DNA from: an uncultured Deferribacteres bacterium
Lineage (GTDB): Bacteria; Zhuqueibacterota; Zhuqueibacteria; Zhuqueibacterales; Geothermadaptataceae
Direction of reading: 5' to 3'
NCBI GenBank assembly: GCA_964014485.1
Contig: CAXHAT010000111.1
Location: forward strand, 1-26,152
Length of the DNA stretch: 26,152 bases
Positions within the stretch are counted from its first letter, which is position 1, and every line of letters starts with the position of its first letter. Under the pieces are notes generated by a model, which had not been told where the DNA came from, did no database searches, and saw only the letters and a program-made list of their open reading frames with translations. The position numbers and the translations under genes are program-made. Positions 1-25,100 of this stretch are shown here, one piece after another.

Positions 1-1056
1 CCGGCACGCAATCCCGGCGGCGCTGAAGTGCGGTTGATCGCATTTTCCGCCAAAAACGGTCAGGAACTCTGGAAGCAAACCCTGGATTCCGGCAACCGGC
101 TTCATCGTAAACAAAACAACGCCTCGCCTTCGCCGGTAACGGACGGCGAGCATGTCTGGGTCGTAACGGGGACGGGCGCTATTTCCGCCTTTGATATGAA
201 AGGCGACCTGAAATGGAAAAAGAATTTGCAAAAAGAATACGGCGAATTCGGCCTCGGCTGGGGCTATGCTTCGTCGCCGCTGCTTTATGACGGCAAATTG
301 ATCGTGCAAGTCCTGCACGGCCGCAGAACGGATGATCCGTCTTACGTCGTCGCTTTTGACGCTGCGAATGGTGCGGTCTCGTGGCGCGTTGAACGCCCGA
401 CCGACGCGCTAATGGAATCTCCCGACGCTTACACCACGCCTGCGATTTCCGAACACGACGGCAAAACGCACATTGTCATTTCCGGCGGCGATTATGTCAC
501 GGGTCATGACCCGAAAACCGGCAAAGAAGTGTGGCGCGCCGCTGGTTTAAATCCTGAAAAACATCGCAATTATCGCGTTGTCGCTTCGCCGGTGACGGTG
601 GCTGGCATGATCTACGCGCCTTCGCGCAAAACGCCGCTGCTCGCACTCAAAGCAGGCGGCGCCGGCGATGTAACCGAGAGTCATCTCGCCTGGAAATGGG
701 AAGGCGGCTCCGCTCCGGACGTACCCACGCCGATCACGGACGGCCAGTATTTTTACATGGTCGATGATCGCGGATTGGCTTCCTGTCTCGATGCAAAAAC
801 GGGCGAGCTGGTCTGGGGCCCGGTGCGCACGGCTCAGGGCAATGTCAGCGCTTCACCTGTACTCGCGGACGGCAAAATTTATATCACAAACGAAAATTCG
901 ATCACAACAGTTTTGAGCGCGGGCGGCAAAGAACCGGAAGTTTTAGCGACGAACGATCTGGATGGAAATTACACCCTGGCTTCGCTTGCGATTGCCAATT
1001 CTCGGATTTACCTGCGGACGAATACGCATCTCTATTGTATTGGAAAAACGGATTGA
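1..1056 (+). CDS. PQQ-binding-like beta-propeller repeat protein (BamB-like family), 5'-partial
   Basis: Repeated propeller motifs ([66 protein letters not shown]). The frame is open from base 1, so the true start probably lies left of the window. Confidence 0.85.
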
Positions 1057-1175
1057 TGGAGAAATGGAGTGCTGGAATAGTGGAGTAATGGAATGTTGGA
1101 GTGTTGGCGAACTGGAGTAGAATTCCATTAATCCAGCAATCCACAATTCCATCAATCCAATATTCCAACATGCCA
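1057..1175. repeat. Inverted pair of 8-bp-period arrays (TGGA-N4)x8 / (N4-TCCA)x7; empty hairpin site 1
   Basis: TGGA at 1057,1065,1073,1081,1089,1097, TGGC at 1105, TGGA at 1113; TCCA at 1124,1132,1140,1148,1156,1164, GCCA at 1172. Begins immediately after the TGA stop at 1054-1056. Confidence 0.9.
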
Positions 1176-1188
1176 GGAAAACAGGACT

Positions 1189-1590
1189 ATGACCTCAATT
1201 TGCCCGAAATGCGGTTACGAGTACGAGCCGCACATTTATAAATGCAGCGATTGTGACGTGGATTTGGTTCACGCCGCAAATGTTGGACAGCAGCCTCGGA
1301 AATCAGAAAAGCGCAAAGAAGAATTTAAGGAATGGGTGCATTTGCAGACGTTCCCCGGCGTTGTTTTCGCAGAAATGGCGAAGGGGCTTTTGGAACAACA
1401 GGAAATTCCAAGCATGATTAAACGTCCTTTCCTCAGCAGCGCCTACGGCAGTTTTGGCACTGGCGGCGCAGGCGTGGATCAAGCAGATTTGCATGTTCCG
1501 CGCATTCATTTTGAGAGAGCTGAGATGATTTTGCACGATTATCTTGAAGAACCGGGAGCGGGAGAGCGAAGTGACGGCATGTTGGAGTGA
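1189..1590 (+). CDS. Hypothetical protein: N-terminal Zn ribbon plus DUF2007-like (putative signal-transducing) domain
   Basis: CPKCGYEY...CSDC, then AEMAKGLLEQQEIPS and DLHVPRIHFERAEMIL, a pattern typical of DUF2007; AGGA upstream of the ATG. Confidence 0.7.
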   Translation: MTSICPKCGYEYEPHIYKCSDCDVDLVHAANVGQQPRKSEKRKEEFKEWVHLQTFPGVVFAEMAKGLLEQQEIPSMIKRPFLSSAYGSFGTGGAGVDQADLHVPRIHFERAEMILHDYLEEPGAGERSDGMLE

Positions 1591-1731
1591 TGGAATGATG
1601 GATGGGTGGAATTTTGGAGTCGTGGAATAATGGATAATTGGAGCAATGACGGAGATCGTAAAAATCCAATAATCCATCAATCCATGATTCCATTTTCCAA
1701 CACTCCAATAATCCAGCATTCCATCACTCCA
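1583..1731. repeat. Inverted pair of 8-bp-period arrays (TGGA-N4)x8 / (N4-TCCA)x9; empty hairpin site 2
   Basis: TGGA every 8 nt from 1583 to 1639; TCCA from 1665 to 1728 (one 7-nt step). The outer 15 nt TGGAGTGATGGAATG / CATTCCATCACTCCA are perfectly complementary. The upstream stop codon (TGA 1588-1590) lies inside the first unit. Confidence 0.9.
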
Positions 1732-1792: not shown

Positions 1793-4700
1793 ATGAGCTT
1801 ACCAGAATTTTCCGTAAAGCGTCCGGTAACGACGTTGATGATTATTTTGAGCGTGATTGTGCTTGGCGTCATTGGCTTGCAACGCTTGCCGCTGACCTTT
1901 ATGCCCGAGATCGAATCGGATCGCTTGCGCATCAGCATTCCGTATCCGTCGTCTTCGCCGCAGGAAGTGGATCGCAATATTGCGCGTCCGATTGAAGACA
2001 TCATGGGCACGCTTTCCGGCCTGGAAGAACTCAATTCAACTTCGAGCGCGAGCAGCTGTAACATTTCCGTCGAGTTCAAGGACGGCACGGACATGGATTT
2101 GGCGGCGGTGGAAGTCCGCGACAGACTCGACCGCGTGCGTGCGCAACTGCCTGACGATGTGGAACGCATCAACATTTTCCGCTGGCAAAGCACCGACATG
2201 CCGGTTTTCGAGTTCAGCCTCGCCTGGCCGGGACGCTCAAATGACGAATTGTACGAAGCGGCGGAAAAAACGCTCGTCCCGCAACTCCAGCGGATGGACG
2301 GCGTGGCGAACGTCGAGATTCGCGGCATGGACGAGCGGCAAGTGATGGTTGAGCTTGATCAGGAGCGAATGAAAGCGCACAATCTCGATTTTTTCAATCT
2401 CTCTCAAAGTCTGCGCACCAACAACATCAACGTCTCCGGCGGCACGGTCATCGACGCTTCGAAGAAATATTCCGTCCGTGTGATCGGCGAGTTTCAGACC
2501 GTCGACGAAATCGCGCAAACGCCGATTATGGGCACAAATCTCGTGCTGAGCGACGTGGCGCGCGTCGCCTTCGATTTCCCCGAAAAGAAAGAATTTCAGC
2601 GCCTCAACAATCAGGAATCGCTGGTGCTGCGCGTCTACAAAGCGTCGACGGCAAATGTGATCGACGTCACTACGCAAGTCGGGAAATATATTCGTAATGT
2701 TGACGAAAACCCCGCGCTTGCCGGGATGGACGTGCAAATTTTCCGCGATCAATCGCAGGAAATCACCAGCAGTCTCGACAACCTGACCTACGCCGGTATT
2801 TTCGGCGGTTTTCTTGCCATACTCGTGCTCTACGTTTTTCTGCGCAAATTCAGAACGACCGTCATCATCGCGATGGCCATTCCGATTTCGATCATCGCCA
2901 CGTTTCTGGTCATGTACCTGATTCGCATGGAGCCAATCAATTCAGGATTGACGCTGAATATTGTTTCCCTCTCCGGGCTGATGTTCGCGATTGGAATGCT
3001 AGTCGATCCGGCAGTCGTGGTTTTGGAAAACATTTTCCGCCACAAGCAGGAAGAAGGGCTGGACGGACGCAAAGCCGCAATTATTGGCGCGCGTGAAGTT
3101 GCCGTCGCGGTGACTTCCGCATCGTTAACGACGATCATCGTTTTCGTACCGCTGCCCTTCGTTCTTGGCTCTGGCTTTGGACGCTGGTTCGGCGATTTCG
3201 GTGTGACAATTGTGTCGGCAACGGCGGCAAGTTTAGTGATCGCGCTGACCGTCATTCCGCTGGCCGCCTCGCGCATGTTTACCGGCAAGGAAAAGCCGCC
3301 GTCCAAATTGCTGACCCGCATGAGCGAAGCCTACGGCACGGCGATCAAGGGCATCACGCGCTTTCCGTATTCGTTGATCGCGGTCGGCGTTTTCGGGCTC
3401 GTGCTTTACGGCGCGTTTGAACTGCAATCCAAAATAGATCGTTCCTGGATGCCGCGCACGCCGTCGCGCCAAATGAATTTGAACGCGGAGATGGATCGTA
3501 ATTTTTCGCTCGCACAAATCAACACGATCATCGATTCAACGGAACGCAAGCTCATCGGCCAAAAGGATGATCTCGAAATCGCGACGGTTTCGACCAATTT
3601 CAGCAAACGCCGGGCACGAATTGCGATCTATTTCATACCGGAAGAAGAAGCTGAGAGATCAACGACCGAACTCTACGCCGCCGTTCGTGCGCAATTGCCG
3701 GAATTTGCCGGGGTTGAGTTTAAAGCCGGACGTATGCGTGGACGCGGCGGTAATGAAGACGGGGTGAGTATTGAACTGAAAGGTAAAAACACCGACGTGC
3801 TCATCACTTACGCCGAAGAAATTCGCACACTGATGGAGGGCATTGAAGATGTGAAGGATGTCGACACTTCCATGGAGCGCGGCGACGAGGAAGTGGCGGT
3901 CAGCGTGGATCGTACGCGCGCGCAAAAATATGGCTTGACGTCGCAGCGGGTGGCGCAAACCATCTCATCGGCATTGACCAGCCGGTCGAATTCCAAATTC
4001 AAAACATCGGAACGCGAGGTCGATATTCTTGTGCAATTGGCTGAAGAAGACCGCGTCAATATCCAGCAATTACAGAATATGACCATCGAAAACAGCCAGG
4101 ATGAGAAGGTGCAGTTGGGTTCCGTCGCTGAGTTAACGGTCAGGAAAGGCCCGCAGTCGATTCGTCGGGAAGACCGCGCGACAACGATCAGGATTTTTGC
4201 CAACACCGAGCAATCCGGCCTGTGGAAAGTCAACATGGAAATCGACAAAATGATGGCCGGAATTCAATTGCCGCCGGGCTATGAGTGGAGCAAGGGACGG
4301 AACTGGCGCATGATGCGTCAGGCTGAGACCGACTCGTCGTTCGCGCTGATTCTGGCGCTCATTTTCGTGTACATCGTGATGGCGTCATTGTTCGAGTCAT
4401 TCATCCATCCGTTCACCGTTCTGTTCTCAGTGCCGTTCGCGCTCATCGGCGTTTTCGTGATGTTTTATTGGACGAGCACAACGCTCTCAACTTCAGGCTG
4501 GCTGGGCATTATCGTCGTCTGCGGGCTTGTGGTGAACAACGGCATCATACTCGTGGACGCGATTAACAAATTTCGACAACAGGGCTTGTCGCGCGCCGAA
4601 GCGATTCGCAGGGGCGGACGCAATCGCTTGCGCCCGATTTTAATGACGACGCTGACTACGCTCATCGGTCTTTTACCAATGGTCGTGCCGACGCTGTTCC

Positions 4701-4906
4701 CGGAAATCTTTGGCCAACAAGAAGGCCGCGCCGGAATGTACGCGCCCATCGGCATCGCCATCGTCGGTGGCTTCCTGACCAGCACCCCGGCGACGCTGTT
4801 CATCATGCCGATTCTCTACGTCATTTTCGACGATCTCAAAAATCTCATGACGCGCTTCGTCGCATTCATTTACACTTCGAAACCCAAACCGGCGGTGGCG
4901 GAATAG
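1793..4906 (+). CDS. Efflux RND transporter permease subunit (AcrB/AcrD/AcrF family)
   Basis: 1037 aa; FSVKRPVTT N-terminus, TM4 GMLVDPAVVVLENI, MASLFES..HPFT, RLRPILMTTLTT. Confidence 0.95.
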   Translation: MSLPEFSVKRPVTTLMIILSVIVLGVIGLQRLPLTFMPEIESDRLRISIPYPSSSPQEVDRNIARPIEDIMGTLSGLEELNSTSSASSCNISVEFKDGTDMDLAAVEVRDRLDRVRAQLPDDVERINIFRWQSTDMPVFEFSLAWPGRSNDELYEAAEKTLVPQLQRMDGVANVEIRGMDERQVMVELDQERMKAHNLDFFNLSQSLRTNNINVSGGTVIDASKKYSVRVIGEFQTVDEIAQTPIMGTNLVLSDVARVAFDFPEKKEFQRLNNQESLVLRVYKASTANVIDVTTQVGKYIRNVDENPALAGMDVQIFRDQSQEITSSLDNLTYAGIFGGFLAILVLYVFLRKFRTTVIIAMAIPISIIATFLVMYLIRMEPINSGLTLNIVSLSGLMFAIGMLVDPAVVVLENIFRHKQEEGLDGRKAAIIGAREVAVAVTSASLTTIIVFVPLPFVLGSGFGRWFGDFGVTIVSATAASLVIALTVIPLAASRMFTGKEKPPSKLLTRMSEAYGTAIKGITRFPYSLIAVGVFGLVLYGAFELQSKIDRSWMPRTPSRQMNLNAEMDRNFSLAQINTIIDSTERKLIGQKDDLEIATVSTNFSKRRARIAIYFIPEEEAERSTTELYAAVRAQLPEFAGVEFKAGRMRGRGGNEDGVSIELKGKNTDVLITYAEEIRTLMEGIEDVKDVDTSMERGDEEVAVSVDRTRAQKYGLTSQRVAQTISSALTSRSNSKFKTSEREVDILVQLAEEDRVNIQQLQNMTIENSQDEKVQLGSVAELTVRKGPQSIRREDRATTIRIFANTEQSGLWKVNMEIDKMMAGIQLPPGYEWSKGRNWRMMRQAETDSSFALILALIFVYIVMASLFESFIHPFTVLFSVPFALIGVFVMFYWTSTTLSTSGWLGIIVVCGLVVNNGIILVDAINKFRQQGLSRAEAIRRGGRNRLRPILMTTLTTLIGLLPMVVPTLFPEIFGQQEGRAGMYAPIGIAIVGGFLTSTPATLFIMPILYVIFDDLKNLMTRFVAFIYTSKPKPAVAE

Positions 4907-5071
4907 TGGAGTGATGGAGAATTGGATTGTTGGAATGCTGGATTAGTGGATTGGTAGAGTTTTGGAATGATGGAATACTGGATCATTGGAGTAGTGGCAG
5001 GGATTGCAAAAATCCACTTCTTCATCTCTCAAATATCCAATAATCCAACATTCCACTATTCCAACACTCCA
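4907..5071. repeat. Site 3: left (TGGA-N4)x12 array and proximal (N4-TCCA) array upstream of the four-helix-bundle gene
   Basis: TGGA-type units every 8 nt from 4907 to 4995, starting directly after the TAG stop (4904-4906); TCCA-type units at 5013-5071. Confidence 0.9.
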
Positions 5072-5090
5072 TTTAACAAAGGATGGTGAA

Positions 5091-5582
5091 ATGGCGGAAT
5101 ACACGCGACGGCGGAATCTGAATCGCGGTTACATGACGCTTGGCGTATGGCATCGAAGTATAGATTTGTATAAGCTGATCCATCGAATCGTTTACGTCGA
5201 TAACAGAATCGATTTCAAAGTTCGGTCGCAGATTGCCGATGCGTCCCAATCGGTTTCAGCGAATATCGCGGAAGGCTACGGGCGGAGGTCGATTAACGAA
5301 TATTTGCAATTTTTGTATATCGCGCTCGGCTCATTAGCCGAAACATTTTCCAGAGCCATTGCACTCAATGCTGCCGACCAAATCTCGTCAAAAGAACTTG
5401 AAGGGATTGACATCCTACATTATGAAGTCGAAAACAAGCTTCTCAAATTGGTTCGCTCGCTTGAAGCCAAACGCACCGACGGCACATGGCAAGCCAGAAT
5501 ATCTGATGATTTCGAAAAATACATCGCGCAACAACCAGATCAAAAAGCAGAACCCAAACCCTACAAATCCCCAAAACCATAA
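5091..5582 (+). CDS. Four helix bundle protein (23S rRNA intervening-sequence protein / bAvd-like family)
   Basis: Family motifs LGVWHRSIDL, VRSQIADASQSVSANIAEGYGR, EYLQFLYIALGSLAE. The ATG at 5091 has AAAGGA/GGTG upstream; the longer ORF from 5004 merely translates the repeat array. Confidence 0.9.
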   Translation: MAEYTRRRNLNRGYMTLGVWHRSIDLYKLIHRIVYVDNRIDFKVRSQIADASQSVSANIAEGYGRRSINEYLQFLYIALGSLAETFSRAIALNAADQISSKELEGIDILHYEVENKLLKLVRSLEAKRTDGTWQARISDDFEKYIAQQPDQKAEPKPYKSPKP

Positions 5583-5587
5583 CACAA

Positions 5588-5659
5588 ATAATCCAGTATT
5601 CCAACAATCCAAAACCCCATGATTCCAATAATCCAACATTCCACCACTCCAACAATCCA
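5588..5659. repeat. Site 3 distal (N4-TCCA)x9 array downstream of the four-helix-bundle gene
   Basis: TCCA at 5592,5600,5608, CCCA at 5616, TCCA at 5624,5632,5640,5648,5656; ends 9 nt before the ATG at 5669. Confidence 0.9.
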
Positions 5660-5668
5660 ATTTTTGAT

Positions 5669-8600
5669 ATGAAAATAGTTGATTTTTCCATTGGACGGCC
5701 GGTTACGATTGTGATGTTCATGTTCGCGGCCATCGTTTTCGGGGCGGTTGCTTTTGACCGCTTGCCGATCAATTTATTACCCGATATTACTTATCCCACG
5801 CTTACCATTCGTACCGAATACACCGGCACGGCGCCGGGCGAGATGGAGAATTTGATCTCCGAACCGGTCGAATCCGCCGTCGGCGTGGTTTCCGGCGTGG
5901 TACGCACCTCGTCGATTTCGCGCCCCGGCGCGTCCGACGTGGTGATCGAATTCGAGTGGGGCACGAACATGGATTTCGCCTCGCTTGACGTGCGTGAAAA
6001 GCTCGATCTCGTCAACCTGCCGCGCGATGCGGATCAACCAATTCTGCTGCGCTTCGATCCATCGTTAGACCCGATTATGCGCGTCGCGTTAGCTGGGGAT
6101 GAAGATTTGATCGCGCTTCGTTTGATCGCTGAGGAGCGCATTAAGCAAGAGATTGAATCCATCGAAGGCGTGGCCTCGGTGCAAGTGCTCGGCGGTTTGG
6201 AAGAAGAAATCCAAATCAATGTCGATGAGGGCAAATTGACGCAGTTGGGTCTGCCGATCACCACCGTTGCGCAGCGTTTGGCCCAGGAAAACGTCAATCT
6301 CACCGGCGGCACGCTCAAAGACGGTGAAGCGGAATTTCTCGTGCGTACGCTCAACGAATTCGAGCGCGTTGATGAAATGAACGACATTGTGGTTGGGATG
6401 CGCGGCAACGCACCGGTTCTGCTGGAAGACGTGGCCCAAGTGATCAAAAGCCACAAAGAGCGCACGGTCATCACGCACTTGAACGGGGAAGAATCCGTTG
6501 AAATCGCGATTTACAAAGAAGCCGACCAAAACACCGTTGCCGTCGCGGAAGCGGTGAAAGCCAAGCTCGACGAATTCCGCGCCGAGTACGACCGTTTCAA
6601 CGTGCCGATCAATATGACCGTCATCAGCGACCAGTCGATTTTCATCCAAAACTCCGTCGACGACGTACTTTCGACCGCGATGTATGGCGGGATTCTCGCG
6701 ATCATCGTACTGATCATTTTTCTGCGCAGCATCAAAAACACCGTCGTTATCGGGCTGGCGATTCCGATTTCGATTATCGTCACCTTTTTCTTCATGTTTA
6801 TGTCGGGCGTGTCGCTCAACATCATGTCTCTCGGCGGTTTGGCGCTGGGCGTGGGCATGTTGGTGGACAGCGCCATCGTCGTGCTCGAAGCCATCGATCG
6901 CTACAAACAGCGCGGGTTTGGCGTGGTCGAAGCGGCGAAAAAAGGCGCCAGCGAGGTCGGCCCGGCGGTGATCGCCTCGACCATGACCACGATCTGCGTG
7001 TTCGTGCCGATCATTTTTGTCGAAGGCATCGCCGGACAACTATTCAATGATCAGGCGCTGACCGTCACCTTTTCACTCGTCGCCGCTCTTTTGGCCGCGA
7101 TGACGCTGATTCCGATGCTTGCTTCGCTACAATACAAGCCGCAAAAATATCTCAAGCCCCAAAAGAGCGCCGAAACTGACACGAACGGTTCTCCCGCTGA
7201 AACGACCGCACCGCGACCGATTTTTCAGGCATTTTCCAAAATCTCCGGCGCTTTCGGACGCGCCGTTTTGTCGCCGTTTGACCGATTCATGAATTATCTC
7301 ACGAACATTTATCCGAAGGTGATCGACAGCGTGGTTGGCAAACGAGTTCGGTTCATTTTTGTCACTGTGTTGCTCTTTGTGGCCAGCGTTTTCGGCATTC
7401 GCGCCATCGGCACGGAGTTGATTCCGGAAATGAGTCAGGGCGAGTTTTTTGTTGATGCGCTTTTGCCAATCGGCACGCCGGTGGAGGAGACCAACCGCAT
7501 CGTCGACGCGATGTCGCGTCTGGCGCAAACGACGGACGAAGTTGAGCACGTCTACGCCGTTTCCGGCACCTCAACGCAAATGGGCTTCAGCGCCACCGAA
7601 GAACGCGAAAACCTCGGCCAATTACACATCAAGCTCAAACCGGGCATTGTCCGCGATGCGGAGCAGGCCGTGATGGACGAGATGCGCGATCAATTCATCG
7701 CCATTCCCGGCCTTGAGTACAAATTTTCCCGCCCGACGCTGTTCAGTTTCAAAACGCCCATCGAGGTGGAAATTCGCGGCTACAACCTGGAAGAGCTTGA
7801 GCGCTTGAGCACGGAAATGGTGGCGAGAATGCGCGAAATCCCAGGTATGCGCGACGTGAAATCGAGCACGGAAGGCGGCAATCCCGAAGTGCAAATCGTT
7901 TTCAATCGCCGCAAAGTCGCGCAAATGGGCCTGGACATCCAAACCATCGGCGCGATTGTGCGCAACAAGGTACAGGGCGAAGTGACGACGGAGATGAACC
8001 GGCAAGATCGTAAAATCGACATTCGCATTCGCAACCAGGAAGAAGACCGCAACAGTCTTGATGATCTGCGCCGCCTGGCGATCAATCCAAACAGCAGTGT
8101 GCCGATTCCGCTGGCCTCGGTCGCCGATCTCAAAATCGAGCGCGGCCCCAGCGAGATTCGTAGGGTGGATCAGGAGCGTGTGGCGTTGGTCACCGCCAAC
8201 ATCACCGACCGCGATCTCGGCTCCGTCACGGAAGACATTCAAGCGGTCATCGACGAGACTGATCTGCCGCCGGATTTTCGCATAACCATCGGCGGTCAAC
8301 AGCGGGAAATGACGACTTCGTTCGACAGCATGCAACTGGCGATTCTGCTGGCGGTTTTTCTGGTTTATCTGGTGATGGCTTCGCAGTTTGAGTCATTGGT
8401 GCAGCCGTTTATCATCATGTTCACCATCCCATTCGCCCTCGTCGGCGTGGTGCTGACGCTCATCATAACCAGCACCCCCGTGAGCGTGGTCGTACTCATC
8501 GGCGCGATCATGCTGGCTGGGATCGTGGTCAACAACGCCATCGTTCTGATCGACTACATCAATCAGTTGCGCAAGGAAGGTCTGCGCAAACTGGACGCGA

Positions 8601-8851
8601 TTAAAAAAGCCGGGCAAGTCCGCCTGCGCCCGATTCTCATGACTACAGCCACCACCGTTCTCGGCCTCCTGCCCATGGCCCTCGGCTTCGGCGACGGCGC
8701 CGAGTTGCGAACCCCGATGGCCGTCACCGTCATCGGCGGCTTGCTCGTCGGCACGCTGCTCACGCTGGTCGTGATTCCAACGGTCTATGATTTGGTGGTT
8801 CGTGAGAGAGTTATTGATGAAGAAAAAATTGCAGTTTCTGTGAATAATTGA
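5669..8851 (+). CDS. Efflux RND transporter permease subunit (AcrB/AcrD/AcrF family), second paralogue
   Basis: 1060 aa; FSIGRPVT, SLGGLALGVGMLVDSAIVVLE, MASQFES, GIVVNNAIVLID, RLRPILMTT. Confidence 0.95.
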   Translation: MKIVDFSIGRPVTIVMFMFAAIVFGAVAFDRLPINLLPDITYPTLTIRTEYTGTAPGEMENLISEPVESAVGVVSGVVRTSSISRPGASDVVIEFEWGTNMDFASLDVREKLDLVNLPRDADQPILLRFDPSLDPIMRVALAGDEDLIALRLIAEERIKQEIESIEGVASVQVLGGLEEEIQINVDEGKLTQLGLPITTVAQRLAQENVNLTGGTLKDGEAEFLVRTLNEFERVDEMNDIVVGMRGNAPVLLEDVAQVIKSHKERTVITHLNGEESVEIAIYKEADQNTVAVAEAVKAKLDEFRAEYDRFNVPINMTVISDQSIFIQNSVDDVLSTAMYGGILAIIVLIIFLRSIKNTVVIGLAIPISIIVTFFFMFMSGVSLNIMSLGGLALGVGMLVDSAIVVLEAIDRYKQRGFGVVEAAKKGASEVGPAVIASTMTTICVFVPIIFVEGIAGQLFNDQALTVTFSLVAALLAAMTLIPMLASLQYKPQKYLKPQKSAETDTNGSPAETTAPRPIFQAFSKISGAFGRAVLSPFDRFMNYLTNIYPKVIDSVVGKRVRFIFVTVLLFVASVFGIRAIGTELIPEMSQGEFFVDALLPIGTPVEETNRIVDAMSRLAQTTDEVEHVYAVSGTSTQMGFSATEERENLGQLHIKLKPGIVRDAEQAVMDEMRDQFIAIPGLEYKFSRPTLFSFKTPIEVEIRGYNLEELERLSTEMVARMREIPGMRDVKSSTEGGNPEVQIVFNRRKVAQMGLDIQTIGAIVRNKVQGEVTTEMNRQDRKIDIRIRNQEEDRNSLDDLRRLAINPNSSVPIPLASVADLKIERGPSEIRRVDQERVALVTANITDRDLGSVTEDIQAVIDETDLPPDFRITIGGQQREMTTSFDSMQLAILLAVFLVYLVMASQFESLVQPFIIMFTIPFALVGVVLTLIITSTPVSVVVLIGAIMLAGIVVNNAIVLIDYINQLRKEGLRKLDAIKKAGQVRLRPILMTTATTVLGLLPMALGFGDGAELRTPMAVTVIGGLLVGTLLTLVVIPTVYDLVVRERVIDEEKIAVSVNN

Positions 8852-9150: not shown

Positions 9151-9612
9151 TCACTCTGAAATGTCATCTTCGCGGCTTACGCCATTTTCTCCGTTCGTAT
9201 CCAGAATCGCCAGGTATTCTTCAGGCGTGCAAACCGTGATTTCGCTTCCGGCTGTATAATCTTTCTTGTTTCTGGTGATGATAAAATCAATTTGCCGGCT
9301 TCTGGAGGAATAATATTGCAGCGCGTCTTCAAAATCAGAAAAGTTTGAGTTCAAGGCCTGGTCGATATTCGCGCTGTCCATCGGTAAAACATCGACGATG
9401 ATTCTCAGCTTCCGCAGGCTCTGGAGCGCGTAGTCTTTCGATTTGAGTTTTCCGAGAATGTAATGAATATTGGCAAACACAAGAGGCGTTGTGTACCCCA
9501 GAACTTTTTTCTGTTCACACAGCGTCAAAATCCGGGCGGAATGTTCGTAAAACGGCTGTCTTTTCGCAAATACATCGAGAATGACATCGGAATCGATGAA
9601 GATTTTGTGCAT
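9151..9612 (-). CDS. PIN-domain protein (VapC-like, PIN_3 type) toxin
   Basis: KIFIDSDVILD, SDFEDALQYYS, IITRNKKDY, TPEEY acidic-residue pattern; start overlaps the upstream stop (TGATG at 9610-9614). Confidence 0.9.
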   Translation of the reverse strand: MHKIFIDSDVILDVFAKRQPFYEHSARILTLCEQKKVLGYTTPLVFANIHYILGKLKSKDYALQSLRKLRIIVDVLPMDSANIDQALNSNFSDFEDALQYYSSRSRQIDFIITRNKKDYTAGSEITVCTPEEYLAILDTNGENGVSREDDISE

Positions 9613-9854
9613 CAGTCATACTTCTCGATAAGATGTTTCGTGTATTCTTCTTTAAGGTCGAACATATCGGGCAGCTCAATTATGCCGGACAGCTCTTCTA
9701 CAATTGGGGACATTTTTGGGGGGGCGTTTTCTTTCGCAAGGACTCTGAAATAGTTTTCCACCAATGCGGACAAACTGGTCTGGTGCGTCTTGGCATAAAG
9801 CTTCGCCATGTCGATAGCGTCTTTGTTGAGTTGCAATGTCAGTTTTGTATTCAT
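9612..9854 (-). CDS. DUF6364-like antitoxin (probable RHH-type) coupled to the PIN toxin
   Basis: MNTKLTLQLNKDAIDMAKLYAKTHQTSLSALVENYF...SPIVEELSGII...HLIEKY; GGAG RBS at 9861-9864. Confidence 0.85.
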   Translation of the reverse strand: MNTKLTLQLNKDAIDMAKLYAKTHQTSLSALVENYFRVLAKENAPPKMSPIVEELSGIIELPDMFDLKEEYTKHLIEKYD

Positions 9855-9871
9855 GAAATTCTCCATGGTTT

Positions 9872-9909
9872 TACGTGTAAAATATAGATTCGATATACGT
9901 GCAACGCAA
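9872..9909 (-). promoter_or_regulatory. Sigma70-type promoter of the antitoxin-PIN operon with candidate operator repeats
   Basis: Minus strand TTGCGT (9904-9909) -17 nt- TATATT (9881-9886); direct repeats TACGTGTAA (9872-9880) and TACGTGCAA (9896-9904) flank the -10 box. Confidence 0.55.
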
Positions 9910-9968
9910 GGGCAATATACTATTTTATTGAATCTGAAAGGTGTAATGGGGAAACGCAAGAGGCGAAG

Positions 9969-10196
9969 CTAAGAAGGAGCTTTATTGACGATCTTCCGTC
10001 ACGCATCTTTTCAGGGAATGATGCTGCCCGGATTGTTGTCCAGCAATTCGAGACGACGATCCAAATCTTTCTTTTGCGCTTCGGTGAGAGGCATTTTATC
10101 CGCATCGGTCTGAAGGCTTTGCCAGATCACAGCAATTAAGTCCAGTCGATCATCGACCGATAGTTGTGCGAGATTTTCGAGCTTTAATGTGTCCAT
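9969..10196 (-). pseudogene. Addiction module component (TIGR02574-like antitoxin), truncated by in-frame TGA codons
   Basis: MDTLKLENLAQLSVDDRLDLIAVIWQSL...LTEAQKKDLDRRL...NPGSIIP*KDA*RKIVNKAPS*; TGA at 10011-10013 (where the family has W) and at 9999-10001. Confidence 0.7.
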
Positions 10197-10384
10197 GATC
10201 GAATGATAGGGAGACGATAAGATAAAAGCCAGAATTTTCTCGTTATAGCAGATCGAATCGTCAATTTTGCGCAAACGCATGTACCGTGGCGGCAAAATTT
10301 GCATTGTATTTGGTGGGATTTTATCGCTTCTTTTCAAATGCTGATAAACCGCATTTCAGACAAGAGTTCAATCTGTTAACAACA

Positions 10385-21999: not shown

Positions 22000-22785
22000 A
22001 ACGGGATGGAAGGCTTGTCTTGATGCGCTGTTTTGGTCATCTGCTTCGCGTCATTGGGTTGTCACTTTTTTGTCATATGCTTCGCATTGTTTCTCATCGT
22101 TTTGGTCGAAAACGACGTCATGCCGAGATGATAGCTGAATTGAAAAACGCGGCAAAGTACTGTTTTCAAAGAAATTGGCTTGTTTTTTGATAAAAGGCGA
22201 AAAATGGGCGGAAATGTCAGTAGAGCGGTCGGATTTCCGATCTGTCCCCACGCATAAAATATTGAACTTAAGCCCGATAAATCCCGACAGCGCCCCCTGT
22301 TTTTTGTCACAAGCGTTTTTCGGAAATTGCGAAAGTGATCTAAAACATTGATTTTAAGATATTTGCCCTATTCTAACAAAAACCCTTGTCGTGCGGAAAA
22401 GACGACTGACAACCGATTTTCAATAGTGTCCCAGATCGTACACATTTTTTTAACCTTCTTAAGTCCTTGTTTTTATAGATGCTTAGAGTGTGAAAAATTT
22501 TTGGTGAAATTTCCGTTGCGTAACTGCATGATTTCTCTATTTTTAAGTCATGTCAATTCCGACAGCGATTTCTGCTAGTTTTTTAGCAGGCGATTTTTCG
22601 GACTTAAGTTTTTGAAAAAATGAGACTTAGGGCAAAAAGTGTTGTCTGTTCCTTGAAAATAAAGAACTTAGCCCATGAAAATCGAAAAAGTTTGTGTTAA
22701 TTTTTTAGCAGAAAGCGGAGTTGTCGAAAACGGCCATTTTGGGCCTTTAAAAAACAAGCGTTTACGCTGTACGCTCGCGTACAGA
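22000..22785 (+). promoter_or_regulatory. CRISPR leader region (long, AT-rich, several IHF-like motifs)
   Basis: No convincing ORF; A/T tracts; abuts the intact first repeat while the degenerate repeat is at the other end. Exact WATCAANNNNTTR match on the minus strand at 22341-22353. The left boundary is arbitrary. Confidence 0.7.
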
Positions 22786-25100
22786 GTGGAAGCCTACCGA
22801 AGATCACGAGGTGAATTGATACTTGGCCTCCTCAGACCCTGAGCCTGTATCGTCATGTGGAAGCCTACCGAAGATCACGAGGTGAATTGATACCGTAATT
22901 CTCCAGGTTTCCTTGCATTTATGTATTGTGGAAGCCTACCGAAGATCACGAGGTGAATTGATACGGACGTCTGAGAGGTGTTGCCTTTCGTCAGTCGTGG
23001 AAGCCTACCGAAGATCACGAGGTGAATTGATACACTACCAACCCCTTTCACTGAACCGACTTTCCCAACGTGGAAGCCTACCGAAGATCACGAGGTGAAT
23101 TGATACAAATATTCTCCCGTGGGCATGATGAAACTCAAGTGGAAGCCTACCGAAGATCACGAGGTGAATTGATACCAATACCTGCAACTCTGCAATCAGC
23201 CATGGCCCTGTGGAAGCCTACCGAAGATCACGAGGTGAATTGATACGAAACAATAGCTGGGGGGGGACGCACCGTAGTGCGTGGAAGCCTACCGAAGATC
23301 ACGAGGTGAATTGATACACTGAGCCACCGCTATGCATTCACCTTTCTCTCTGTGGAAGCCTACCGAAGATCACGAGGTGAATTGATACAAATGCTCCAAT
23401 CACGACGTACCGCTCAGCTCGCGTGGAAGCCTACCGAAGATCACGAGGTGAATTGATACACAAGTCCGAGCTCTACTTTGGTTACCATCCCGGTGGAAGC
23501 CTACCGAAGATCACGAGGTGAATTGATACAAGTGGCGTGTATTGGAGAAGAAATTGTATCCGGGTGGAAGCCTACCGAAGATCACGAGGTGAATTGATAC
23601 ACTCTCCCCATTTGCCGTACTTTTCCTTCCAGTGTGGAAGCCTACCGAAGATCACGAGGTGAATTGATACTCCGTACATATGTGGGCGAGCCCTGAGGGT
23701 ATCCTTCGTGGAAGCCTACCGAAGATCACGAGGTGAATTGATACAAAGAGAAAGCCACCATAAGACTGAGTTTTCTCAAAGTGGAAGCCTACCGAAGATC
23801 ACGAGGTGAATTGATACAAGCCCTGCATCCTGATCAATTAGGAGGGAGTCGTGGAAGCCTACCGAAGATCACGAGGTGAATTGATACGAACTCAGGAAAC
23901 GCGAAGATGGTCAGCGCGACTGTGTGGAAGCCTACCGAAGATCACGAGGTGAATTGATACGCTTCTGCGTTATTGCATCCGGCAGGGCGTCTAGGTGGAA
24001 GCCTACCGAAGATCACGAGGTGAATTGATACCTTTTCCGTACGGAGATCAATGACCATATCACCGGGTGGAAGCCTACCGAAGATCACGAGGTGAATTGA
24101 TACAAATATTCTCCCGTGGGCATGATGAAACTCAAGTGGAAGCCTACCGAAGATCACGAGGTGAATTGATACCAATACCTGCAACTCTGCAATCAGCCAT
24201 GGCCCTGTGGAAGCCTACCGAAGATCACGAGGTGAATTGATACGAAACAATAGCTGGGGGGGGACGCACCGTAGTGCGTGGAAGCCTACCGAAGATCACG
24301 AGGTGAATTGATACACTGAGCCACCGCTATGCATTCACCTTTCTCTCTGTGGAAGCCTACCGAAGATCACGAGGTGAATTGATACAAATGCTCCAATCAC
24401 GACGTACCGCTCAGCTCGCGTGGAAGCCTACCGAAGATCACGAGGTGAATTGATACACAAGTCCGAGCTCTACTTTGGTTACCATCCCGGTGGAAGCCTA
24501 CCGAAGATCACGAGGTGAATTGATACAAGTGGCGTGTATTGGAGAAGAAATTGTATCCGGGTGGAAGCCTACCGAAGATCACGAGGTGAATTGATACACT
24601 CTCCCCATTTGCCGTACTTTTCCTTCCAGTGTGGAAGCCTACCGAAGATCACGAGGTGAATTGATACTCCGTACATATGTGGGCGAGCCCTGAGGGTATC
24701 CTTCGTGGAAGCCTACCGAAGATCACGAGGTGAATTGATACAAAGAGAAAGCCACCATAAGACTGAGTTTTCTCAAAGTGGAAGCCTACCGAAGATCACG
24801 AGGTGAATTGATACAAGCCCTGCATCCTGATCAATTAGGAGGGAGTCGTGGAAGCCTACCGAAGATCACGAGGTGAATTGATACGAACTCAGGAAACGCG
24901 AAGATGGTCAGCGCGACTGTGTGGAAGCCTACCGAAGATCACGAGGTGAATTGATACGCTTCTGCGTTATTGCATCCGGCAGGGCGTCTAGGTGGAAGCC
25001 TACCGAAGATCACGAGGTGAATTGATACCTTTTCCGTACGGAGATCAATGACCATATCACCGGGTGGAAGCCTACCGAAGATCACGAGGTGAATTGAAAA
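22786..25100 (+). CRISPR. CRISPR array: 33 repeats (37 bp GTGGAAGCCTACCGAAGATCACGAGGTGAATTGATAC), 32 spacers of 32-37 bp, 18 distinct; class 1-like
   Basis: Repeats counted by hand from 22786 to 25064; terminal repeat ends ...ATTGAAAA. Hairpin TCAC-GAG-GTGA is followed by an 8-nt ATTGATAC handle. Spacers 19-32 duplicate spacers 5-18. Confidence 0.98.

Follow-up and report, generated by a model that had tools for sequence, protein, structure and literature searches.

In this study we have analysed a stretch of 26,152 nucleotides of DNA from an uncultured Deferribacteres bacterium (contig CAXHAT010000111.1 of assembly GCA_964014485.1, positions 1 to 26,152 of the forward strand; hereafter, the window), with a focus on a gene of the Pfam family PF05635 that is located between two genes for RND efflux pumps and is enclosed by arrays of an octamer repeat. 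Our comparison with other genomes suggests that the gene and its two complementary arms, which are built from the unit TGGA-D-T-R-N, probably constitute one selfish cassette, and not a piece of cargo in a scaffold of the host; the design of this cassette matches that of the intervening sequences (IVSs) of 23S ribosomal RNA (rRNA) that bear an open reading frame (ORF), the cassette being lodged here between two cistrons of an RND pump operon. Binding by the encoded protein, processing of the transcript and mobility of the cassette are what we infer beyond this.

Between the upstream pump gene (RND1, AcrB family, 1793..4906, Pfam ACR_tran with E 5e-216) and the downstream pump gene (RND2, AcrB family, 5669..8851, ACR_tran with E 1e-254), both host genes, the elements follow each other in the order TGGAN4 array (the F arm), R1, PF05635 gene and R2, a longer TCCA array, and all of these features are read on the forward strand. 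The F arm (4907..4998, the end being approximate) contains about 11 TGGAN4 units, one of which is TAGA and the last of which is TGGC, and its first base directly follows the RND1 stop codon TAG (4904-4906). The spacer that leads from the F arm to R1, delimited from the sequence, forms a loop (4999..5035); a blastn query with a loop of 45 nt (positions 4991-5035) has retrieved no second copy of it in the genome. R1 (5036..5071) has five TCCA cores and is followed by a leader (5072..5090) in which AGGA and GGTG, in our judgement a putative ribosome-binding site, precede the gene; the gene extends from the ATG at 5091 to the end of the stop codon at 5582 and encodes a protein of 163 residues, a four-helix bundle according to Pfam, AlphaFold2 (AF2) and Foldseek. 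R2 (5592..5659) consists of eight or nine N4TCCA units, with R2a at 5592-5623 and R2b, the copy of R1, at 5624-5659; the ATG of RND2 (5669) lies 9 nt past its end, a distance that was already given in a preliminary description of this DNA and is confirmed by the sequence. The form of the locus that contains the gene is confirmed by one metagenome contig of 1083 nt that spans positions 4709-5791 with zero differences; the locus is present in contigs from three DNA runs of one marine-metagenome study, and no RNA run that holds it has been found.

The reading of gene and arms as one cassette is carried by the company that the gene keeps in other genomes. A search with the window protein against one genome per species has returned 76 loci at 34-69% identity, with the record labels Verrucomicrobiota, Bacteroidota, Ignavibacteriales, Scalindua/Thermoguttaceae, Calditrichaceae, Latescibacterota, Acidobacteriota, Gemmatimonadota and Neomarinimicrobiota; a TGGA array within 200 nt upstream together with a TCCA array shortly downstream of the gene occurs at 52 of the 76. 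The 62 close homologues (at least 44% identity over at least 100 residues), which bear at least eight phylum labels, divide into 50 loci with both arms, four with the F arm only, four with the R arm only and four with neither, and no arms occur at the seven full-length loci with 34-46% identity; in the flanks that lie more than 400 nt from the gene, which amount to 331 kb, there are only 27 arrays. The orientation is constant across phyla, with F upstream and R downstream of the gene, and the unit consensus, derived from 778 units of this genome, is similar in other phyla. Among 11 loci scanned in relatives (nine at 61-68% identity, the others at 54% and 63%, with one locus each from the unpublished genomes G016 and G023 included), all 11 have at least one TGGA/TCCA array and nine have both arms; of the remaining two, one has F only (L083) and one has R only (L085).

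The other members of the family in the same genome (8.4 Mb in 465 contigs) have arms of their own. There are nine PF05635 matches in total, and six of the eight that are located outside the window cassette each lie between inverted arrays of another 7-8-nt unit, the unit labels having been read by eye: CAAAG (C58:34862-35176), CGGAG (C39:39479-39784), TTAGG (C205:11167-11484), GTGAG (C67:2395-2700), CTGTGAG (C250:153-470) and GAGCAAT (C9:78-392). Several of these six genes have a complete hairpin on each side, and two are at the end of a contig, the arrays having interrupted the assembly there. When the six are taken together with 15 further PF05635 members from relatives, those proteins that are 55-91% identical to their nearest neighbour have the unit of that neighbour or a related one; of all the observations, this correspondence between subfamily and unit is, in our view, the one that hints most strongly at a mutual recognition of protein and repeat unit. 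Since the TGGA/TCCA arms travel with one gene subfamily across phyla (50 of the 62 close homologues), and since other subfamilies come with other units, gene and arms are best understood as one cassette, and the proposal of the preliminary description, a docking site of the host that captures genes, is not sustained.

The same association is seen at the level of whole genomes. We have sampled the phylum evenly (151 genomes); with the gene defined by E <=1e-20 and the arrays by five units, the gene is present in 15 genomes and the arrays in 31: both occur together in 14 genomes, the gene alone in one and arrays alone in 17, and 119 lack both, so that arrays are found in 14 of 15 carriers of the gene versus 17 of 136 non-carriers, and six of the seven array-rich genomes (at least 100 hits) carry the gene. 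Without the two unpublished genomes G016 and G023, the counts are 12, one, 17 and 119, respectively, and four of five array-rich genomes have the gene. In a nearer sample of 41 genomes, the gene is found in seven of the nine genomes that have at least 40 array hits. Related genomes are not independent of each other, and for this reason we attach no probability to the co-occurrence.

Besides the cassette, the genome contains many hairpins of the same design that enclose no gene. It has 231 TGGA/TCCA arrays of at least three units, versus 0-20 for twelve control tetramers; the arrays form 147 clusters, 62 of which are simple F-R hairpins, and 71 hairpins have a loop of up to 80 nt. The gene-less hairpins have a mean length of 93 nt and a mean minimum free energy of -35.7 kcal/mol, and they are locally clustered: 10 neighbour pairs occur within 5 kb versus 2.5 expected, a number that none of 2000 random placements reaches. 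Two of them are located in the window, upstream of RND1, and are given here without a strand: F8-7-R6 at 1041..1167 (units of F, loop in nt, units of R), whose first units include the stop codon (1054-1056) of the PQQ-propeller gene that precedes it, and F8-22-R4-3-R5 at 1583..1731, where the stop codon of the ORF 1189-1590 lies within the first unit. They had been described as empty sites at 1057-1175 and 1583-1731, and both are real hairpins, the first of which we have re-placed; the statement that versions of one hairpin design with and without the gene exist in a single operon is supported. At all three sites of the window, the upstream gene has its stop codon within the first TGGA units or immediately ahead of them. 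The 133-residue ORF 1189-1590, which is bracketed by the two gene-less hairpins, has a weak match to DUF2007 (E 6.6e-5, below the cut-off) and an N-terminus that, read by eye, resembles a Zn-ribbon (CxxC...CxxC).

It might be supposed that such arrays are products of slippage, similar to microsatellites, and that they adjoin the gene by chance or as a result of local composition. Homogeneous arrays of a single unit do occur, many of them at contig ends, and would fit this supposition; the pattern TGGAN4TGGAN4TGGA, however, has 32 matches in the window and none in each of 100 dinucleotide shuffles, the control tetramers fall far below the 231 arrays of the genome, the reversed array pattern is at zero in nearly all genomes and the F arm is always upstream and the R arm always downstream of the gene. 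We consider slippage an extremely improbable explanation.

The surroundings of the cassette differ between genomes. Eight copies in order-level relatives (61-67% identity) are found in eight different contexts, for example an ABC operon and a pair of MacB permease genes. The orthologous RND1-RND2 junction is only about 100-150 nt long in three relatives (G004, G007 and G008), is longer but free of arrays in three others, and contains an SGNH-like gene in G009. In G001 (L108:780-1500), the junction has an apparently secreted ORF of 137 residues without a Pfam match and, after it, a PF05635 gene of another kind (E 3e-13), which contains a TGA in frame and has GAAT/ATTC heptamer arrays on both sides; between the protein of this PF05635 gene and the window protein there is no similarity (E 0.27). 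Fourteen junctions in named records of the KSB1/Calditrichota type, a set that probably overlaps with our G-labelled genomes, show a similar spread, with gaps of 47-1336 nt, and none of 14 junctions found in metagenome contigs, where the best identity of the RND2 protein is 78%, has a PF05635 gene. The preliminary description had called for a search for empty junctions in relatives, and short ones have been found; together with the variable junctions, these mean that empty alleles exist and that the junction is variable. In one of the 14 named records, which has the KSB1 label (L137:1330-1601), we have observed gene-less inverted arrays of the heptamer GCTGAnn, with a loop of about 150 nt, at the orthologous junction.

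The RNA fold that is predicted for positions 4895-5675 has an energy of -236.2 kcal/mol (z -5.2); the outer F units are paired with R2 and the inner F units with R1, and the separate duplexes have energies of -71.7 kcal/mol (F with R2) and -39.0 kcal/mol (F with R1). It is chiefly the TGGA/TCCA cores that hold the stem together.

Several observations weigh against our reading, in the first place those that concern the pairing. The Watson-Crick complementarity of the spacers is 0.595 within a locus versus 0.513 between loci (59 of 83 loci evaluable), a modest excess that could reflect lineage composition. In the 52 cassette loci among L001-L076, the mismatches of the sense strand are A.C in 52 cases versus G.U in 21, an excess from which it follows that the antisense strand would form the better hairpin, and the antisense strand does pair slightly better in 34 of the 52 cassettes; taken together, these two results do not favour selection for a stem in the sense RNA. 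The gene-less hairpins likewise have no strand bias. With respect to the association, one genome with 347 array hits (G014, 99% complete) has no detectable gene, as is also the case for sixteen genomes with few arrays. Searches of the genome with blastn and tblastn have found no second copy of the cassette interior, and none of the gene-less hairpins has a remnant of it within or close by, so that the derivation of these hairpins from the cassette is argued from the shared unit and the co-occurrence. The locus shares only 75-78% protein identity with its nearest relatives, too little for a target-site duplication or an exact boundary to be defined, and the protein has no recognisable catalytic domain.

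A purely regulatory explanation, with no mobility, has to be weighed at this point. The hairpins would be RNA structures at 3' ends and in intercistronic gaps, similar to repetitive extragenic palindromic (REP) elements and acting as stabilisers, RNase III sites or attenuators; the protein would be an RNA-binding regulator with its own gene within one of its targets, and the pairing of F with either R1 or R2 would be a switch. The location of the hairpins agrees with this, since they directly follow stop codons (the gap on the stop-codon side is at most 20 nt in 42 of 71 measurements) and are rare between divergent genes: of 58 classified hairpins, 39 lie between co-directional, 16 between convergent and three between divergent genes, the neighbours being crude ORFs of at least 100 residues and not gene calls. 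The two alternative pairings are indeed predicted, and gene and arrays co-occur, as this explanation would also have it. Against it stand the copies that are 61-67% identical in a different context in each relative, and the homologues at 44-65% identity over many phyla, which require transfer or movement; in addition, the pairing lacks a sense-strand bias and there is no excess of signals that resemble terminators or promoters, the counts being no higher than in shuffles. Overall, we regard regulation without mobility as an unlikely account of these elements.

The direct repeat that brackets the gene, reported previously as two 36-mers with 33 of 36 positions identical, is present as described: R1 (5036-5071) and R2b (5624-5659) differ at three positions, and their offset (5624-5036) gives the length of 588 bp that had been assigned to the gene with its flanks. 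In order to evaluate this identity, we have compared R1 with the in-register five-unit segments of the genome (n=210), where, besides R1 itself, two segments reach 33/36: the copy in R2 and, on contig C15, an unrelated array; for segments with mixed spacers, four of 2149 pairs reach at least 33. The repeat thus ranks in the top 0.2-1%, and is not unique. Compared across loci, the score for a direct repeat between upstream and downstream flanks is 29.0 at the window locus, above all 747 inter-locus controls (maximum 21.0). A clear arm repeat that brackets the gene is found at two of 63 loci, the window locus and L020 (a Latescibacterota record), which has the same architecture with a direct repeat of 41 nt and a score of 23.5; two more loci, L038 and L045, are marginal. 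The bracketing repeat is a minority architecture, and the usual layout is F-gene-R. By a manual count, R1 agrees with the complement of the F units with which it would pair at about 29 of 36 positions; as R1 is closer to R2b than to this complement, duplication of an arm is a more likely origin of R1 than fold-back copying.

The preliminary description had proposed from the same repeat that gene-less hairpins are docking sites: a circle of the gene and one R arm would integrate by recombination between R arms, generating F-R-gene-R, and excision would restore the empty hairpin. The repeat of 33/36, the architecture of L020 with the two marginal loci, and the product of deletion all fit this model; removal of one repeat with the intervening DNA would leave a hairpin F10-45-R5, of the design of the empty sites and like the 71 gene-less hairpins, as had been predicted. 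What speaks against the model is that most loci have the plain F-gene-R layout, with a clear bracketing repeat in only two of 63, that the unrelated array on C15 matches R1 equally well and that no recombinase has been found in the window: a Pfam scan of 20 window ORFs has identified no transposase, reverse transcriptase (RT) or integrase domain, in agreement with the earlier statement that none is adjacent. The expectation that the arrays enclose small cargo genes has also failed, as the genes between TGGA hairpins are ordinary host genes located between two complete hairpins (an FtsQ-type POTRA protein, a glyoxalase, a sulfotransferase and a fourth that reads by eye as a sigma factor), which counts against gene capture. 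In the metagenome contigs, which are the only reads-derived material covered, we have seen no joint that skips the 588 nt and no excised or circular form, for which the preliminary description had proposed to look. Docking and capture are, in our view, improbable.

Two apparent joints in these contigs (4952->5591 and 1620->5044) were considered as excision products and are instead read as cross-matches between arrays: the shorter side is only 21-24 nt long, and for 4952->5591, the letters between and behind the joint match a gene-less hairpin on contig C57. A single non-PF05635 ORF has been seen inside one TGGA hairpin: it has 163 residues and no Pfam match, and is located in the 495-nt loop of the hairpin F5-495-R4 at C93:16592-17158.

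The protein encoded by the cassette passes the Pfam gathering score of PF05635 with 72.9 bits (cut-off 33.8, E 2.9e-20). Its AF2 model (predicted local distance difference test score, pLDDT, 82.7) has helices at residues 17-37, 42-63, 68-94 and 100-130, so that the bundle comprises residues 17-130 and the ends are disordered. The best Foldseek match is Xcc0516 (2GSC, E 9.5e-6, target TM-score 0.88), followed by BT_0352 (2RLD, annotated as "S23 ribosomal protein family", E 5e-4) and by Avd of the Bordetella diversity-generating retroelement (DGR; 4DWL), which bears out the structural kinship to Avd that had been noted before; a sequence search among structures has recovered 2GSC alone. The crystals 2GSC and 2RLD have five chains, and the window protein is probably oligomeric as well, with disordered tails. 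An alignment of 24 homologues from many phyla has 24 invariant and 22 nearly invariant columns, which indicates that the gene is under constraint; the N-terminal motif xEYTKRRNxNRGY is specific to this PF05635 subfamily, and the C-terminal tail is variable and, in some loci, encoded by the R arm. We infer that the protein recognises its own repeat unit.

Among known systems, the ORF-bearing IVSs of 23S rRNA are the closest in design, and those of Leptospira are a further example besides that of Coxiella burnetii. According to PMC4990558, the C. burnetii IVS is a selfish, horizontally acquired element of 428 nt in helix 45 of the 23S rRNA, with an S23p ORF and with excision by RNase III; PMC8700078 does no more than list genes of this kind. 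The window cassette is similar to these IVSs in that an ORF of the PF05635 family is enclosed by complementary, stem-forming arms (-71.7 kcal/mol for F with R2), and differs from them in its location, an mRNA operon junction between RND genes instead of a helix of the 23S rRNA, and in its arms, which are arrays of an 8-nt unit with a TGGA core and have about 70 gene-less copies in the genome. A scan of the whole window with Rfam, rRNA families included, has yielded no family at the gathering score, and the matches below threshold are to models of miRNA precursors, i.e. generic hairpins. Our search of the literature has found no publication that describes arms of repeat units around the PF05635 family outside rRNA.

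A second resemblance is to the REP elements (REPINs) and their REP-associated tyrosine transposases (RAYTs), where dispersed palindromes at the 3' ends of genes co-occur with a single-copy Y1 transposase gene that is itself flanked by the repeats. The TGGA hairpins are likewise dispersed palindromic repeats at gene 3' ends that co-occur with one flanked gene, but this gene is of the PF05635 family and encodes a helical bundle of roughly 135 residues without a nuclease fold, and the arms are tandem short units and not one conserved palindrome. We have considered the presence of a RAYT itself and rejected it: the genome has seven matches to Y1_Tnp (PF01797), none of which lies within the 147 array clusters, so that no Y1 transposase is found beside a TGGA array. 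The relation to the DGR protein Avd (4DWL, 8UB7) lies in the four-helix-bundle fold, at a sequence identity of only about 15%, and there is no RT domain in the 20 scanned window ORFs; template and variable repeats of a DGR were not searched for. Miniature inverted-repeat transposable elements (MITEs), other small palindromic intergenic repeats and the short tandemly repeated repetitive (STRR) heptamers of cyanobacteria are short, gene-less, hairpin-forming, dispersed and locally clustered. The gene-less TGGA hairpins are also short, dispersed and locally clustered; the window cassette has inverted arms, with no transposase found in the window and no target-site duplication identified, and the candidate partner is the PF05635 protein. 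The cassette is unlike that of an integron, as no integrase has been found in the window and the enclosed gene is always of the same subfamily, not varied cargo.

If gene and arms are one selfish cassette, as we favour, the transcribed arms would form a long imperfect stem, to be processed like the stem of an IVS, and the gene-less hairpins would be derivatives or dependants of the cassette, in the way that REP elements depend on the RAYT gene. The window copy would be a composite, in which R2 is the best partner for the complete F arm, and R1, located between this arm and the gene, duplicates distal R2. If R1 and R2 recombined, or if slippage occurred between them, the gene would be lost and a hairpin of the common gene-less type would remain, which is a plausible route from the loaded to the empty form.

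In a wider form, which we put forward only tentatively, PF05635 proteins would be sequence-specific partners of the units of their own arms, with one 7-8-nt unit for each subfamily, and gene and arms would be a selfish element without a transposase that seeds gene-less hairpins. This would explain the IVSs of rRNA as well as many of the heptamer and octamer intergenic repeats that lack an explanation, the window copy being an intermediate between loaded and empty forms that is generated by arm-by-arm recombination.

Further features of the window are located away from the cassette. A CRISPR-like array (clustered regularly interspaced short palindromic repeats) occupies 22786-25097, with a 37-nt repeat that starts with GTGGAAGCCTACCGAAG, a period of about 71 and about 32 copies; an AT-rich stretch (22300-22699, GC 0.34) is located immediately upstream of it, and there is no cas gene among the scanned ORFs, those past 25273 having no Pfam match or lying outside the scan. 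On the minus strand, small genes of the toxin-antitoxin type are found at 9151-10334: a PIN_3 protein (9151-9612) with a DUF6364 protein (9612-9959), and an Unstab_antitox protein (10011-10337).

The present analysis contributes the genome-level count of co-occurrence, the placement of the elements at stop codons, the controls for the direct repeat and the variable RND junction. PF05635 is a very widespread family with no assigned function outside DGRs, and bacterial intergenic hairpins of tandem units are likewise unexplained; if the gene and the repeats are partners, both puzzles obtain an answer that can be tested. The arrays also have a practical effect, since they break short-read assemblies, many of them being located at contig ends. 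As the elements immediately follow stop codons within operons, they may influence how the neighbouring genes, in this case those of a pair of RND efflux pumps, are expressed, and if the wider form of the cassette reading is true, the IVSs of rRNA would be one special case of a general cassette.

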